NCBI GenBank assembly: GCA_000146465.1
Contig: CP001948.1
Length of the DNA stretch: 64,000 nt
Direction: 5' to 3' (one strand)
The translations under genes and the position numbers were made by a program. Shown here in pieces: positions 46,046 to 53,393 of the stretch; position 1 is the first letter of the stretch, and every line of letters starts with the position of its first letter. The notes beneath the pieces were generated by a model. That model did not search any database and was not told the DNA's origin. It saw only the letters and a program-made list of their open reading frames with translations.

Positions 46046-46290
46046 AGTCTTGAGATTATGAAAATCGTGGTTTAAATAGTTTTTCTTGCTCTTACAATGT
46101 TTTGGATCTACCAATAGTCCACGGGCCTATGCCTGAAACACTTCTCAGATTGATCCACCTATTCTTCTTGCAGTGTCTGTTATGGAGTCTTAATGGATAC
46201 AGATCACATAGACCAAGCTTTTCTTCTGGCCCTGTTAAGCAGACCGGGCTTATATCATGGATTTTATACTTGGAAATTAAGGCCCTTGAA

Positions 46291-47178
46291 ATGGTAGTAC
46301 AGGAGAGGAAAGACAACCTTCCTCCAAAGGGACTAAGAAATAGAGGGAACACTTGTTTCTTCAACTCGGCAATGCAATGCATTCTATCGATCGGCGAGCT
46401 CAACACCTTCTACAAGAACACGGATTTCCCAAAAGAAAAAGTAATATCTAATGCATTTAAACAATTCATATCGGAGTATGAAAGTCGGGGACACAACGAC
46501 CCAAAGAGTCTTATCGATAAGCTTAGTACAAAGATAAAGCTGTTCAACGGGATGCAGCAGGATTCCCATGAGTTTCTTATTCAATTCATTGATCTGTTGT
46601 ATACGGAATCGGATAGAAACAAAGGTAGATTTGAATCAAGAGAAGAGTTTGAGGAGGTTCGGAAACACAATCTGATTGCAAAGACTTTGTTTTCGATGGA
46701 TAGACAGGTATTAACATGCGAAGCATGCAGTTATTCCTCTGTGACACTTGCTATAAACAGCACGATTCTTGTAGAGCCCCGTGAGACTATCCAACTAGGA
46801 ATAGACCAGTGTTACGAAGAGGTGAAGCTTGAGGGAAAGGATGCCTGGAAATGCGACAAGTGTGGAAAAAAGAAGAGCTCTAAAAAGAAGATAGAGATTC
46901 TTGTTCATCCCGAAGTTCTAATAATTCATATCTCAAGATTCCATCCACAAGGGTGGAAGAATACAGCAAGTGTCAATATTGATGACACATTGTTTTTCAA
47001 CAATAGAAAATACAGTCTTTTTGGGGTTGTTTGCCAGAATGGAACTCTGAGCGGAGGACATTATTTTGCAGAGGCCAAAAGATCTGGTACATGGAATGTG
47101 TACAATGACGAGCAGGTGACAAAAGGCTCCAAGACCTACAGTGGAGCACATCCTTACATAGTTTTCTATGCTCTTTAA
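46291..47178 (+). CDS. ubiquitin carboxyl-terminal hydrolase (USP/UBP, peptidase C19), catalytic core only
   Basis: Cys box is GLRNRGNTCFFNSAMQCI. His box is GGHYFAEAKRSGTWNVYNDEQV. A zinc-ribbon-like CEAC...CDKC lies between them. The ORF extends upstream to 46102, and the start is set at Met 46291. Confidence 0.75.
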   Translation: MVVQERKDNLPPKGLRNRGNTCFFNSAMQCILSIGELNTFYKNTDFPKEKVISNAFKQFISEYESRGHNDPKSLIDKLSTKIKLFNGMQQDSHEFLIQFIDLLYTESDRNKGRFESREEFEEVRKHNLIAKTLFSMDRQVLTCEACSYSSVTLAINSTILVEPRETIQLGIDQCYEEVKLEGKDAWKCDKCGKKKSSKKKIEILVHPEVLIIHISRFHPQGWKNTASVNIDDTLFFNNRKYSLFGVVCQNGTLSGGHYFAEAKRSGTWNVYNDEQVTKGSKTYSGAHPYIVFYAL

Positions 47179-47335: not shown

Positions 47336-48142
47336 ATGGTATTTTGTATGGAAAACTTCTGGAGCATAGTTCCATGCAGGAGTAAAAGAGAGGAGAAGGT
47401 TATTAAAAGTACCTATCTAAAGAGCTATGAGGCAACTCAAAGTGAATGTGAATCGGATTTTTTTTCCGATAGCGGTGGACTTGACGAAGCACGTGGGAAG
47501 GACAACTCCCGACGGATGAAAAGAAATGAAAGAAATATTTCTAAAAAAATCCGGAAAACAAGTTCTAGCATGGTTTCAGAGCCAAGAATCGATGAAAAGA
47601 AGAAACAAAAGCCAAGGACCAATAGTACTGTGAGTAGCGAGGAACTTTGGAGTGGTGAGGATGAAGAAATAGTTGATCAAACAGAGTCTTTCAGCGGATT
47701 CAAAGAAAGGAAAAGAGATAGGAATAGAAGAGGGAAGTCGGAAGGTAATAGAGAAGTCTCTTCAGAGGATTCACACTTTGAAGACATCCAGGGCCCGAGG
47801 AGATCTTCTAGGACAATAGATGCATCTGCCAAGAAGACCGAGATACTTGAGAAGTATAGAAGTAGGATATATCGTGACAACAAAAAATCCCGCGATCCCG
47901 AGGATATTTCAAGGGAATCTGGAATCGAATCAAACGATTATGGAAAAGAGGAAAGGTTTTCTAAGTCGCAAGGGCTTAATAGATTTGGAGACTCCAAAGT
48001 AAATGAAAGAGATGCCCGCAACTTTGATGATAGCGAAAGCGAAATCAACTTTATAATGGACGTATACGACAAATCATCACTGAATAATAGCTTGAGAGAA
48101 AAGATGTTTGAATACCTTAACCAAATAGGGAGGAAAGGATAA
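47336..48142 (+). CDS. hypothetical highly charged (K/R/E/S-rich) low-complexity protein
   Basis: ORF only. Its composition resembles nucleolar or chromatin-associated disordered proteins. Confidence 0.3.
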   Translation: MVFCMENFWSIVPCRSKREEKVIKSTYLKSYEATQSECESDFFSDSGGLDEARGKDNSRRMKRNERNISKKIRKTSSSMVSEPRIDEKKKQKPRTNSTVSSEELWSGEDEEIVDQTESFSGFKERKRDRNRRGKSEGNREVSSEDSHFEDIQGPRRSSRTIDASAKKTEILEKYRSRIYRDNKKSRDPEDISRESGIESNDYGKEERFSKSQGLNRFGDSKVNERDARNFDDSESEINFIMDVYDKSSLNNSLREKMFEYLNQIGRKG

Positions 48143-48186: not shown

Positions 48187-49152
48187 TTAATTCTGTTCCA
48201 TCTGAACAGGATGGACAAGCCTTTCCTGATTTCCAACAAATATATTTCTTATTTTATCGCTCTGCTTCTCGCCTAAAGGTCTGGAATTCTTTCCATCGGA
48301 GTCCCAGACTTTAAATTCCTTTAGCAATCCGCTGTTGTCCCCTTTAAGAAATGAATGGAGATTACTAATGCTTTGGAAGTGAAGAGATAGGCTACGGGCT
48401 GCATTTATTCCTATTCCCGGAATGTTCTGTAAAACATTTTGGAGATGCTCAATCTTTTGATTTGAAGAAAATGTCTTTGTTTTTGGTACGTGGACGCTCT
48501 CTGAATACAGATGCCTTACTATGGCTTTCAGTTCTCGAGGAAGATCCTCAGGATCATCGATAAAGACAAAGTTTCTACCGTTCTTGATTTGTGTGAGATA
48601 GATTTCCTCCATCTTTTTTTCATATTCATTTTTCTTCCTGACGTATTTTTTTCCTTCTTCCAATGCTTTTCTATATTCCTTGTCTTCTCTCGCTTTTACA
48701 GAACTCCGATATTTGTTTCTGTTCACTACAAAAGAGATGTTGCGGCCACAAGCCTCAATTCCATCCTTTTCCAAATCGATAACTCCTAGAGAATATACTG
48801 TCTTATGGTTATTACATTCAACTATCTCTAAGGACTGGTCCGCGGAAAACTTGTAAACAAATTTCCGGTCCTTTATCTTGTTTACAAACCTCTCTAAGGT
48901 TTGAGGAAAGACAAAGTAATGGTTTGCAAAGGCCGAGTCAAGATTCTTCGGAAATGAATTCTGCTGTGTTTCTGAGGATGCCTTTAGCTGAGGAGCATTA
49001 GATATGGAGAGTGGAATGTCGAGAATGGTAATCGAACTGTCGGTATCGGGGACGTTTCCTGAAGATCTTTCATTCCCTACACTGCTCCTTTCCAAATATT
49101 CCATGAGATTTACATGCTGGCTGTTCATCAAAAGCCCCCAAAAACTTCTCAA
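48187..49152 (-). CDS. HhH2-containing protein, candidate Eme1/Mms4-like partner of a structure-specific endonuclease
   Basis: C-terminal LQNVLQNIPGIGINAARSLSLHFQSISNLHSFLKGDNSGLLKEFKVWDSDGKNSRPLGEKQSDKIRNIF resembles the EME1 tandem helix-hairpin-helix tail (L..IPGVSEEIAQAI...YPTMRSL...LLAELKVRRGEG...RRIGPELSRRIY). Confidence 0.4.
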   Translation of the reverse strand: MRSFWGLLMNSQHVNLMEYLERSSVGNERSSGNVPDTDSSITILDIPLSISNAPQLKASSETQQNSFPKNLDSAFANHYFVFPQTLERFVNKIKDRKFVYKFSADQSLEIVECNNHKTVYSLGVIDLEKDGIEACGRNISFVVNRNKYRSSVKAREDKEYRKALEEGKKYVRKKNEYEKKMEEIYLTQIKNGRNFVFIDDPEDLPRELKAIVRHLYSESVHVPKTKTFSSNQKIEHLQNVLQNIPGIGINAARSLSLHFQSISNLHSFLKGDNSGLLKEFKVWDSDGKNSRPLGEKQSDKIRNIFVGNQERLVHPVQMEQN

Positions 49153-49159
49153 TTTATCT

Positions 49160-50701
49160 CTACCCTCTCTTTGGATTCTCAGGAAGAAGCTTAATATACC
49201 CTCTTCTATTAGTATTAAGGTGAAGCTCCTTGGATCTCGAAGGATTTAGATAAAACATCCGAATGGCCTGTCCAACTTTGATGTCTGGGGAAGGATTCCA
49301 CCATGTCACTGTGCATTCTCCGCTACTATCTCTGACCAGTAGCTTGGTATACATAGTGATCCTTACATCATGCGACGAAAAGACTCTTTCTGCTTTCCTT
49401 GCGAGATCTTCTATTCTATCCAGTTCGGGTTCGAGATCATCAGTTGTATTGCTATAATTCTCCACTTTTACAAAATACTTTGTTTCGATGATCTTTATAA
49501 CAACCCCTTCAATGCAGCAGACAGGGCCTCCATTGCTAAGGATTTCCGATATCTTAAGTCTGAACCCTATTCTTTTTCTATATCCAAGTCTTCTCTTGGA
49601 ATGGACTACTCGGACTCCATTGTAATGCAGCTTAAGACGGACATTCTCACAATCAAAAATGGATATTGGCGTGCTTCCCTCAAGATCTGCCCCAAAGACC
49701 TTAAGTCTAAATCCAACTCGGATCTCCTTCTTTTCTATCTTTTTTTGGAGAGCCTCGTCATATGATGCATAGAGACTGTGATATCCATCAAATACCTCAA
49801 TCTTTTCTCCATCTATTCCAACAACCAAGAGGATCATATATCTCCAAGGGACATCGTCCCCCTCCAGAATTCTCCGAAGTACAGAATACTCATTCTCTAG
49901 TCTTATCCTAACCTGCTCTTCTATTCTATCTACAAAATCATTAAACTCCAGCCGTCTCCTCCCAAGGAAAAAATAAATCCACGCCCATGTAAACTGAGCA
50001 AAAACTCGGTTCGTATCTTCTGCAGGAAACCTCTTTTTCATCTCCCTATAAACCCTCTCAGGATCTATTTCTACTTCTTCCCTCTCCACTCTTCGAGATA
50101 AATTGTCCTGCGCTTCTCCATTTGTATCTACTTTTTCCATTCCATCTTCGAATATTTTATATGCTGAGCGAATACTCTCCCTTCGCACCTGGATCTTCTT
50201 TTTAGATCCTGTTGTAAACCCTGAAAACATCATATCTTCATTGGTGTTCCCTCCTTCGCCAAGATCTATATCCAAGATATGATCAGAATCCAAAGATAAG
50301 CGCTTTTGAGGAAAAGTATTGGGATTGTTTTCATCAGTGCTTGTTACACCGATGCTGTTTGTAGAATTAGCATTCATGGCTTTGCATCCATCTTCAGGAC
50401 TCTCAGGAATCCGAGATGAGTCCGAGTTGAAGTCGTAGAATGTTTGATTTTCCTGTTCTAAGGACTCGGATACATCGGGTTCCTCCCCTGCAGTGTTATC
50501 TTTACGGCAAGCATTGTCTGAGCTAAAAAAAATCATATCATCACAACTTACTTGGATTGAATCAAGGACGCTGAAAGAGTCTTCTGTCTCTTCTTCGCTG
50601 TTGCTACTGCTTTGGAAGAAACTTTCAAATTCAACCTCCGAGCCTGCATCCATGGGCAGAATGCAGGAGGGATGCTGTCGGAATAAAATACAAAATAACA
50701 A
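49160..50701 (-). CDS. BRCA2 homologue (minimal: one BRC repeat + helical domain + OB1)
   Basis: BRC repeat [28 protein letters not shown] matches BRC4 [26 protein letters not shown]. The DNA-binding domain blocks align in order with human BRCA2 helical domain and OB1: [30 protein letters not shown] matches [79 protein letters not shown] matches [64 protein letters not shown] matches [21 protein letters not shown]; and [16 protein letters not shown] matches SDGGNVGCVDVIIQR. Confidence 0.8.
   Translation of the reverse strand: [513 protein letters not shown]
50144..50230 (-). other. BRC repeat (RAD51-binding motif) within the BRCA2-like CDS
   Basis: [28 protein letters not shown] follows the FxTASGK...ESL...LF consensus. 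Confidence 0.7.
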
Positions 50702-50702
50702 T

Positions 50703-53393
50703 TTATTCTGTTCTCAATCCGAACAGATTGTTTCTATCGTTGTTCACTAGAAACCAAACAGTTTTGAAGAAGTGTTCGGGAAGGATGAGGGATGAGTTTG
50801 ACTTGGCTGTGTTTGGGTCGTTGTAGTATGATTCCTTCTCAATCTCCTTGGTATCCTTGATTCCTAGCTCAGACAGCGGAAGAATATCGACATCTGGCCC
50901 TCCTCCCATTTCAGACCAGCTTTCTAGAAGATTGACTCTTTCCACAAGAACCCTCTCTGTAAAGGTGTCCAAATACTCCTCTTCCTTGATGTTTAGAGGA
51001 TAGAAGTGGCAGGACTTGTAGAACATCTTCTTAAGGCTACTGCGGAATATAAATGTGATCAGAATAATGGGAAGAAGAAACATCGAGAGGTAAAATCTCT
51101 TGTCCGAAGACATCTTTGCAAAGGTTGCCACCTGGAAAAATATAAGCGAAAACATTATGTTCTGGCATGCAGAGTCCCAATATCCCCCTCCGGACTCATA
51201 CTGGTTTCTAGAAGCATACAAAAACTCCGACTTAAACGTTAAGTAGTTGCATAAGTAGAAAAACGCTCCGAGTAGAAGGATTGGCGGGCATATGACTGCG
51301 TAGACAATAGACATCGAAAATACAGTCAGACACGACGGGAATATGGTCCCGAAGTCAAATGGAGGAGAGAACTCGGCATCGAATCTTTCCCTCCTTGTCT
51401 TTCTCCCCGTAAATGGAAAGATAATGTAATTTATCAGCAACGGAGCAGGCTTCAGCAGTGTTAATGCAGTTCCCACTAAGGTCCTTTGGATAATTGTATT
51501 TGCGAAAAATACAGACGATTCTAGGGACTCATTACTGAACGCCTTGATGACATTGTATATTCTTTCATTTCGGAACAGAACATCTGCAAAGAGCCTATAG
51601 AAGCTTGATGCAAAGAACACCGAGACAAACCCGTTGAAGAACAGGAAGTTGGAGAGTTTGTCCATCAGCTTCTGTTGGAAAGTTGAGTATGAGTAGATTC
51701 CTTCCATGTTCACAAGTGCGGTTATGATCGTAGGGACAAACACCATCATGGAGTTGTAAATAAGTGGGAATAAGATTCCTCGCAAGGAGTCGGTGATAGT
51801 CTCATGCTTGTCCAGAAACGAGGATATAAGCTTGTTTTCTCTAAACATCTCGGTGCTTACTAGCAAAGTAACAATGTTGGCAACTATCGACGAGAATAGG
51901 ATGATAAAAAGAATGAAAAACACCGCCCCAAAGACACTGTACATGTAGTTTTCGACCTCGCTGTTTGTTATGTTCTCCCAGATGACGTCGTTCGGTGCCG
52001 GGGCATCTTCCGATGCGACCGAAAATATTCTTGATCCTATTTGTGACTGCTTCACTATATTTGCACTTCTCTGGTCCTTGAACGTAACAAATCCTCTTTT
52101 GGTTTTTGAGGGGAGGTCTAGAGTAAAGTACATCTTGTAGTTGCTGTAATTGAGTATGTGATGAAACGAAAAGAAGCTTGCATCCTGCGATATGTCACCT
52201 TGCAGGAAAAGAGTGTTATTGTGTGAAACTAGCTCGACAATCCTAACGTCCTTATTCCTTGCTTCCTCATTTTTTATGATCTCCTTTTCCTTGCTAATTC
52301 TGCCATTCACGTTATTCAGTTTTTCCAAATAGAAGTTTACCTTTGGGATATCTTCCTTGAGTGTGTTTTCGAACTGCTTGGCTCCGTCCAAAAATAGAAC
52401 AATAAGTTGTCTCTTCTGTGAAGAATCAAAAACACCCTCTATGTTGGCCTCCTCAACAGTTTTGAGGATGCTCTCTTTAAATCCAGATATACTTTCTGCA
52501 CATGCTTCCTGATTCTTTTCCGACCAGTCTTGCATCTTTGCAAACTTTTCATTGATTTCTTTCTCGATGTTATAGATGTAGCTGTCCTTCTCACTATAAA
52601 GACTCTGCAAAGTATTGGTATCATATACGAGTACACAGTCATCAATCTCTCCAACTCCGAGGGAATCAATAAACTCAAAGAGATCTATATCGTTATTCAC
52701 ATAGCTTGGTAGTCTCGAGAGAATTAGCGTTCTGTTTGGAAGGTTGACATACTCTGTAGACTTCTCGGCACTTCCAAGGTTGTTTGAGAGTCTCTTCAGT
52801 GTTATTATGGACGTCATTATTGCTGGGTTGCGTAGATATGCTTGCCTTAGAACGATATATCTTTTGTAGTATATAAAGATAGAGTACATTATAAAGGCAG
52901 ATATAAGGTACACAACAGGTATTATGAATCCATAACTTTCGGACTTTGGGTCCAAGCTTCCTAGAGAAAGTCTAACAAGCCATTGATCAGAATTCTCGAC
53001 GTTCTCCCGCTGGTTTGTCCAGAACAAATATCCCAGAGATGGGATAACAAAGAAAGATAGGACAAAGAGAATTCTGTACAGCATCTTCAATGTCTGCAGC
53101 ATCATAAATGCATCTAATCCTATGATTGATAAGAGTATTGTGTCGCTTACCGTCACAACAGGAATGATCCAGCTAAGAAACCCGGTGTAGTTATAGCACG
53201 GATGGCAAGGTCTGTCTTTGACGTTGGGTGAATAAAGCCATCTTGCCCTCTTTCTGAAGATGATGTACACTATTAGGATACAGACTGTGATAAATCCCTG
53301 GGACACTATGTTTGTCAACACAGCATTGTCAGCCCCCTTCAGAGGAGGCTTTTCTACTGCCTTCCCCATGTTTTCCTTGTCAGCATCGGCCAT
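50703..53393 (-). CDS. CSC1/OSCA/TMEM63-family calcium-permeable stress-gated cation channel (DUF221 / RSN1_7TM)
   Basis: N-terminal TM FITVCILIVYIIFRKRARWLYSPN, then FLSWIIPVVTVSDTILLSIIGLDAFMMLQTLKM (the family's conserved f.sWi...d.e.l...GlDa..fLrfl block). A cytosolic middle domain follows. The C-terminal multi-pass region contains many aromatic or Gly TM helices. Confidence 0.7.
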   Translation of the reverse strand: MADADKENMGKAVEKPPLKGADNAVLTNIVSQGFITVCILIVYIIFRKRARWLYSPNVKDRPCHPCYNYTGFLSWIIPVVTVSDTILLSIIGLDAFMMLQTLKMLYRILFVLSFFVIPSLGYLFWTNQRENVENSDQWLVRLSLGSLDPKSESYGFIIPVVYLISAFIMYSIFIYYKRYIVLRQAYLRNPAIMTSIITLKRLSNNLGSAEKSTEYVNLPNRTLILSRLPSYVNNDIDLFEFIDSLGVGEIDDCVLVYDTNTLQSLYSEKDSYIYNIEKEINEKFAKMQDWSEKNQEACAESISGFKESILKTVEEANIEGVFDSSQKRQLIVLFLDGAKQFENTLKEDIPKVNFYLEKLNNVNGRISKEKEIIKNEEARNKDVRIVELVSHNNTLFLQGDISQDASFFSFHHILNYSNYKMYFTLDLPSKTKRGFVTFKDQRSANIVKQSQIGSRIFSVASEDAPAPNDVIWENITNSEVENYMYSVFGAVFFILFIILFSSIVANIVTLLVSTEMFRENKLISSFLDKHETITDSLRGILFPLIYNSMMVFVPTIITALVNMEGIYSYSTFQQKLMDKLSNFLFFNGFVSVFFASSFYRLFADVLFRNERIYNVIKAFSNESLESSVFFANTIIQRTLVGTALTLLKPAPLLINYIIFPFTGRKTRRERFDAEFSPPFDFGTIFPSCLTVFSMSIVYAVICPPILLLGAFFYLCNYLTFKSEFLYASRNQYESGGGYWDSACQNIMFSLIFFQVATFAKMSSDKRFYLSMFLLPIILITFIFRSSLKKMFYKSCHFYPLNIKEEEYLDTFTERVLVERVNLLESWSEMGGGPDVDILPLSELGIKDTKEIEKESYYNDPNTAKSNSSLILPEHFFKTVWFLVNNDRNNLFGLRTE

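Follow-up and report, generated by a model that had tools for sequence, protein, structure and literature searches.

The DNA analysed here, a stretch of 64,000 nucleotides (nt) referred to below as the window, comes from Encephalitozoon intestinalis chromosome VII and carries on its minus strand a gene for a compact BRCA2-like protein. An open-reading-frame check of the window found an uninterrupted minus-strand open reading frame (ORF) at 49160..50701. Translation from the ATG at 50653 yields 497 amino acids (aa) and is identical to Eint_070380 (100% identity and coverage), which is deposited as an 'uncharacterized protein' of Encephalitozoon intestinalis ATCC 50506 and is named 'BRCA2 OB1 domain-containing protein' in UniRef. 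The TTG at 50701 is the mechanical opening of the ORF and lies 2 nt past the stop codon of the upstream gene, while the orthologues all start at the same methionine, within the alignment motif MD..SEVEFE. Given this shared start, the TTG abutting the upstream stop, and the identity to the deposited protein, the coding sequence is assigned to 49160..50653 on the minus strand (497 aa plus stop), and the ATG at 50653 is almost certainly the true start. A preliminary description of this DNA had placed a protein of about 500 aa at 49160-50701; the size holds, and the start moves from the TTG to the ATG.

Residues 1-138 (50240..50653, minus strand) form an acidic, serine- and threonine-rich region with 32 D/E residues against 6 K/R, a net charge of -26 and 10 aromatic residues. 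This region is predicted to be disordered, with a predicted local distance difference test score (pLDDT) of 24-38, well below 50, in a full-length AlphaFold model. Within this otherwise variable segment, the motif M-x-DSEVEFExFFQSS at aa 1-20 (50594..50653, minus strand) is strongly conserved in the Encephalitozoon/Ordospora clade and was undetected in other microsporidian homologues by a hidden Markov model scan; it may be a short linear interaction motif for some partner. A single BRC repeat is located at aa 143-170 (50144..50227, minus strand), where Pfam PF00634 matches with E 7.5e-07 and 28.9 bits against a curated cut-off of 20.3. Its FxxA-type module is F146-T-T-G149 and its LFDE-type module is I-F-E-D at aa 167-170, with G145, F146, T148 and G149 invariant in 14 orthologues. 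A profile of the 14 orthologues matches the BRC4 peptide of 1n0w_B (E 0.033), and the repeat aligns without gaps to human BRC4, FTTG over FHTA and IFED over LFDE. The acidic, serine-rich, disordered N-terminus and the BRC peptide are thus both as first described.

Architecture of the DNA-binding domain

The C-terminal part of the protein contains OB1 at aa 257-372 (49538..49885, minus strand), which is matched by Pfam BRCA-2_OB1 (PF09103) with E 8.6e-18 and 64.8 bits against a curated cut-off of 25.6 and is modelled as a beta-barrel. In a phmmer search against solved structures, the only significant matches were entries for the BRCA2 DNA-binding domain (DBD). The alignment to the tower-deleted chain 1mje_A (E 4e-09) pairs ORF residues 299-492 with chain residues 261-473, continuing past an SNGGPVCC block to the C-terminus, and the 14-orthologue profile aligns to the same chain with E 3.9e-13, likewise through OB2. 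Profile-profile comparison was conducted with hhalign, using 62 compact homologues (described below) and 34 canonical BRCA2 DBDs drawn from the HMMER relatives. The compact and canonical profiles match with a probability of 100% and E 8e-40, and are colinear from about residue 196 to residue 492 with the tower skipped. In the canonical reference P0120, Pfam places the helical domain at 665-844, OB1 at 847-955, the tower at 991-1028, BRCA2DBD_OB2 at 1140-1191 and OB3 from 1208. The match spans P0120 residues 768-1196: it runs from inside the helical domain, through OB1 and into the first OB2 strands, jumps about 107 columns that include the tower, resumes over BRCA2DBD_OB2 and stops just short of OB3. 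When segments were aligned separately, OB1 alone gave E 5.5e-29, OB2 alone E 2.3e-11, and the post-tower part of OB2 E 1.8e-9.

The full-length AlphaFold model, made with 14 orthologues, was poor (pLDDT 59, predicted template modelling score (pTM) 0.36), and Foldseek template modelling scores (TM-scores) obtained from it were uninformative. It was replaced by a model of residues 190-497 built on a 75-sequence alignment, which is very confident (pLDDT 95.1, pTM 0.89) and consists of four helices, two beta-barrels and one 14-residue helix at the tower exit point. Query-normalised Foldseek TM-scores for residues 190-497 are 0.65-0.71 to BRCA2 and at most 0.29 to all other structures. The profile alignment, the two modelled barrels and the Foldseek scores together indicate two OB folds. 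By alignment and model, aa 373-492 (49178..49537, minus strand), which begin at the SNGGPVCC block, form a second OB fold, a homologue of BRCA2 OB2 that has no tower. A single short helix at aa 407-420 (49394..49435, minus strand; residues 218-231 in model numbering) occupies the position at which canonical OB2 carries the tower insertion of more than 100 residues.

A Pfam scan of the 497-aa protein gave no match to Tower (PF09121) or OB3 (PF09104). In place of the tower, the alignment skips the roughly 107 template columns and the model has only the 14-residue helix. OB3, which occurs in animals and plants only, has no room in the sequence, as the protein ends 5 residues past OB2. Neither loss excludes membership in the BRCA2 family, since fungal BRCA2 homologues also lack OB3 (PMC10684384) and Caenorhabditis elegans BRC-2 also lacks the tower (PMC3240595).

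Upstream of OB1 lies a probable remnant of the helical domain at aa 196-256 (49886..50068, minus strand), with helices that the model extends to aa 263. Its alignment is colinear with roughly the final 75 residues of a canonical domain of about 180-190 residues; in the whole-DBD alignment its roughly 60 residues fall on the last third of the canonical helical domain, and they are modelled as four helices packed on OB1. Several long canonical homologues with multiple BRC repeats (P0069, P0127 and P0129) also match only the last 50 or so positions of the Pfam helical domain. It therefore seems that what eukaryotes conserve of this domain is a core of OB1-proximal helices, to which the microsporidian stub corresponds.

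The preliminary description had read the C-terminal half as helical domain plus OB1, had seen nothing like OB2, the tower or OB3, and had headlined a protein with one OB fold, in contrast to the two of Ustilago Brh2. OB1 and the absence of the tower and OB3 are borne out, and the structure model has four helices and two beta-barrels. The helical-domain match is only partial, and OB2 is present in tower-less form, which gives the protein the same OB count as the Brh2 it was set against.

To define the distribution of this layout, an exhaustive HMMER search with the 14-orthologue profile was conducted, returning 1291 matches, and layouts were compared in the 157 best representatives. About 62 clusters among these, of 444-1162 aa, have a compact layout of one to four BRC repeats, a helical stub of about 60 residues, OB1, and a contiguous C-terminal OB2 of about 118 residues. 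The tower-site segment (Y400..D442) measures 41-50 residues in 62/62 compact homologues. Every named compact member is microsporidian, with Encephalitozoon, Ordospora, Astathelohania, Conglomerata and the early-branching Nematocida represented, and on these sequences the reduced architecture characterises the phylum as a whole and is no peculiarity of a single genome. Assignment to the family had been made before: databases already label several microsporidian homologues BRCA2-like, including 'Breast cancer type 2 susceptibility like protein' in Astathelohania and 'Breast cancer 2' in Conglomerata. Our searches for Encephalitozoon, microsporidia and Nosema found no open-access paper describing a microsporidian BRCA2, and the classic survey of repair genes in E. 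cuniculi, which includes Rad51 and Rad52, never mentions BRCA2 (PMC1851970). What is new is the structural variant, in a family that is well known and already flagged by automated annotation.

A predicted RAD51 mediator and its alternatives

Matches above curated Pfam thresholds, the profile-profile alignment and the structure comparison agree on BRCA2 family membership, as the preliminary description had proposed. We consider it very likely that the 497-aa protein is the BRCA2/Brh2 orthologue of E. intestinalis, in a reduced form common to microsporidia and with a presumed role as RAD51 mediator. By sequence and model, an acidic N-terminus predicted to be disordered is followed by one BRC repeat, a probable helical remnant of about 60 residues and OB1, and the protein closes with a tower-less OB2.

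RAD51 binding, single-stranded DNA (ssDNA) binding and mediator activity are inferred here from knowledge of the family. The BRC repeat would hold a RAD51 monomer by mimicking the RAD51 oligomerisation motif, with FTTG standing for FxxA and IFED for LFDE, and the OB1-OB2 module would bind ssDNA. The protein would bring RAD51 to resected, RPA-covered ssDNA and nucleate the recombinase filament there. The tower with its three-helix bundle is the double-stranded DNA-binding part of BRCA2. As the protein has no tower or three-helix bundle, OB3, PALB2-type N-terminus or C-terminal site for binding RAD51 filaments, loading would probably occur directly on ssDNA and not at junctions of double- and single-stranded DNA. 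A partner is available in the sister species, as E. cuniculi encodes Rad51 (PMC1851970).

Several observations weigh against this identification. In the Pfam scan at E<=1, the 497-aa protein matched neither BRCA-2_helical (PF09169, about 187 positions) nor BRCA2DBD_OB2; of the Pfam families named in the preliminary description, the BRC repeat and BRCA-2_OB1 were recovered and the helical domain was not. Aligned alone with hhalign, the helical remnant is not significant (E 1.2e-3, probability 19%). Of the second BRC module, the orthologues keep the LF-type core alone, and that in part, and the acidic residues vary. The mode of DNA binding is uncertain with both the tower and OB3 gone.

Among the alternatives, the one that survives best, and is still very improbable, is that the protein is a decaying BRCA2 relic that no longer works in recombination. 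More than half of the yeast homologous recombination (HR) gene set is reported to be missing from the parasite, and Rad54, Rdh54, Srs2 and other HR proteins are reported absent from E. cuniculi (PMC1851970). In this protein most of the helical domain is gone along with the tower and OB3, and residues that contact DSS1 have been replaced. Against decay, the reading frame is unbroken and its conservation extends across the phylum, with constant domain lengths in the 62 compact clusters, including the narrow range at the tower site. The DBD is also more conserved than the N-terminus (71-76% identity compared to 65-68% for the whole protein in the four nearest orthologues), the core BRC positions do not vary, and the model is very confident, which would be unusual for a degenerating sequence.

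We give still less credence to a minimal BRCA2 whose only elements are one BRC repeat, a complete helical domain and OB1, and in which the C-terminal 120 or so residues would not be an OB fold. Pfam taken by itself would allow this, as it reports the BRC repeat and OB1 alone, without BRCA2DBD_OB2, Tower or OB3; the second barrel in the model and the alignment of the OB2 segment on its own (E 2.3e-11) refute it. Least credible of all is a generic RPA-like protein with tandem ssDNA-binding OB folds and a BRC-like motif arisen by chance, not a BRCA2 orthologue; the structure searches returned BRCA2 at scores that nothing else approached.

DSS1 and comparison with known BRCA2 systems

As a partner of BRCA2, DSS1 binds the helical domain and OB1. 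In mammals and Ustilago, a BRCA2 that carries the DBD requires DSS1; human K2630 contacts D17 of DSS1, and the K2630D substitution abolishes HR (PMC3240595). The equivalent position is K in 34/34 canonical homologues, whereas 62/62 compact homologues carry L, I, M, F, V or A there. The tryptophan of the canonical DGWY motif, which we take to be a DSS1 contact although a literature search did not confirm this, is present in 34/34 canonical and 2/62 compact homologues. DSS1 itself is an acidic protein of about 70 residues and is easily missed. A scan of the 64 kb of the window found no small acidic, aromatic-rich DSS1-like ORF. Two independent studies did not find Sem1/DSS1 in any microsporidian examined (PMC8615682; bioRxiv 10.1101/2022.07.11.499521). 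Replacement of the K2630 lysine, a helical domain cut down by two thirds, and the failure to find Sem1/DSS1 in microsporidia suggest that microsporidian BRCA2 could be naturally independent of DSS1 across the phylum, a possibility that we put forward tentatively and regard as somewhat doubtful.

If microsporidian BRCA2 does work without DSS1, the compact helical-OB1 module might be intrinsically stable and displace RPA without an acidic DNA-mimicking partner. A second option is that the protein's own acidic, aromatic-rich N-terminus (net charge -26 over 138 residues) would act in cis, though such functional mimicry is speculation. The N-terminus was also considered as a fused DSS1 and rejected, as BLASTP against human DSS1 gave E 29 and Pfam DSS1_SEM1 did not match.

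Among known systems, Brh2 of Ustilago maydis and other fungal homologues, such as that of Naganishia liquefaciens, share with the Encephalitozoon protein, whose helical part is a probable one, a fungal-type layout of helical region, OB1 and OB2 without OB3 (PMC10684384). They also have few BRC repeats (one in Brh2) and a presumed main role as RAD51 mediator. The fungal proteins differ in their length of about 1000-1200 aa, their full helical domain, the tower that protrudes from OB2 (PMC10684384) and their dependence on Dss1. In contrast, the Encephalitozoon protein has 497 aa, only about the last third of the helical domain, a 14-residue helix in place of the tower, and no DSS1-contacting lysine. 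Mammalian BRCA2 (3418 aa; PDB 1MIU, 1IYJ, 1MJE) has eight BRC repeats, a full helical domain, a tower with a three-helix bundle, OB3, a PALB2 site and a C-terminal RAD51 site, and none of these extras is present in the Encephalitozoon protein.

C. elegans BRC-2 is likewise small, with a single BRC repeat and no tower, and probably delivers RAD51 directly to ssDNA (PMC3240595). It differs in that it is described as having a single OB fold nearer to the RPA than to the BRCA2 OB folds (PMC3240595), whereas the two of the microsporidian protein are BRCA2 OB1 and OB2 by sequence. The protein was first described as among the smallest BRCA2 architectures; it is not the smallest, given the single OB fold of BRC-2 (PMC3240595) and the existence of compact homologues of 444-463 aa.

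The natural microsporidian protein also resembles the engineered mini-BRCA2 and BRC-RPA fusions of Siaud et al. (2011, PMC3240595). Joining one or more BRC repeats to an OB module that binds ssDNA is enough for substantial HR, and tower deletions keep partial activity (PMC3240595). Mini- and midi-BRCA2 constructs that carry the DBD need DSS1 binding via K2630 (PMC3240595), a position that is hydrophobic in all 62 compact DBDs. The size of BRCA2 makes it difficult to work on, and such engineered constructs have been used to ask which of its parts are needed. The microsporidian protein would be a natural minimal BRCA2 kept across a phylum, with about 300 folded residues (helical stub, OB1 and tower-less OB2) plus one BRC repeat, and its size is within reach of recombinant expression and structural studies. 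If the protein works without DSS1, tower, OB3, PALB2 site and C-terminal RAD51 site, it would set a lower bound for a DBD-containing RAD51 loader and allow a direct test of the contribution of DSS1. Its main value is as a tractable natural minimal BRCA2 for biochemistry and as a possible DSS1-free case. Since the E. cuniculi survey omits BRCA2 (PMC1851970), a predicted RAD51 mediator should also be counted within the 'stripped-down' recombination machinery of these parasites.

Neighbouring genes and annotation

The locus is a typical compact microsporidian region. The upstream gene (50703..53393, minus strand) encodes an RSN1_7TM/PHM7 membrane protein of 896 aa with Pfam matches to RSN1_TM, PHM7_cyt and RSN1_7TM, the last of which Pfam annotates as a calcium-dependent channel region. 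Only 49 nt separate the stop codon of this gene from the BRCA2-like ATG, an illustration of the extreme gene density. On the other side, 8 nt beyond the BRCA2-like stop, begins a 321-aa ORF (305 aa as annotated; 48187..49152, minus strand), which carries the name 'putative vesicular transport protein' in E. intestinalis. It belongs to no Pfam family, and its orthologues, annotated as 'vesicular transport protein', are restricted to Encephalitozoon and Enteropsectra. A weak helix-hairpin-helix-like match (E 0.14) links its C-terminal part (…LQNIPGIGINAARSL…) to the C-terminus of UvrC, and the transport name looks unsupported. This ORF was considered as a repair partner of the BRCA2 homologue and set aside, the weak match and narrow clade distribution establishing no link. 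Further downstream are a highly charged, K/R/E/S-rich ORF of 268 aa (47336..48142, plus strand), which has no Pfam match at E<=1, and beyond it a UCH deubiquitinase gene (46102..47178).

Gene order is conserved in E. cuniculi, as judged by the locus tags M970_070380 and M970_070390. Two homologues of the BRCA2-like protein, P0004 and P0007, are filed under membrane-protein names. The E. romaleae orthologue is deposited as 'putative integral membrane protein', a name that has probably shifted from the neighbouring RSN1_7TM gene. The other, a 485-aa protein of 47-51% identity, is entered as 'integral membrane protein' for the snail Biomphalaria pfeifferi, and is probably microsporidian DNA in the snail assembly.
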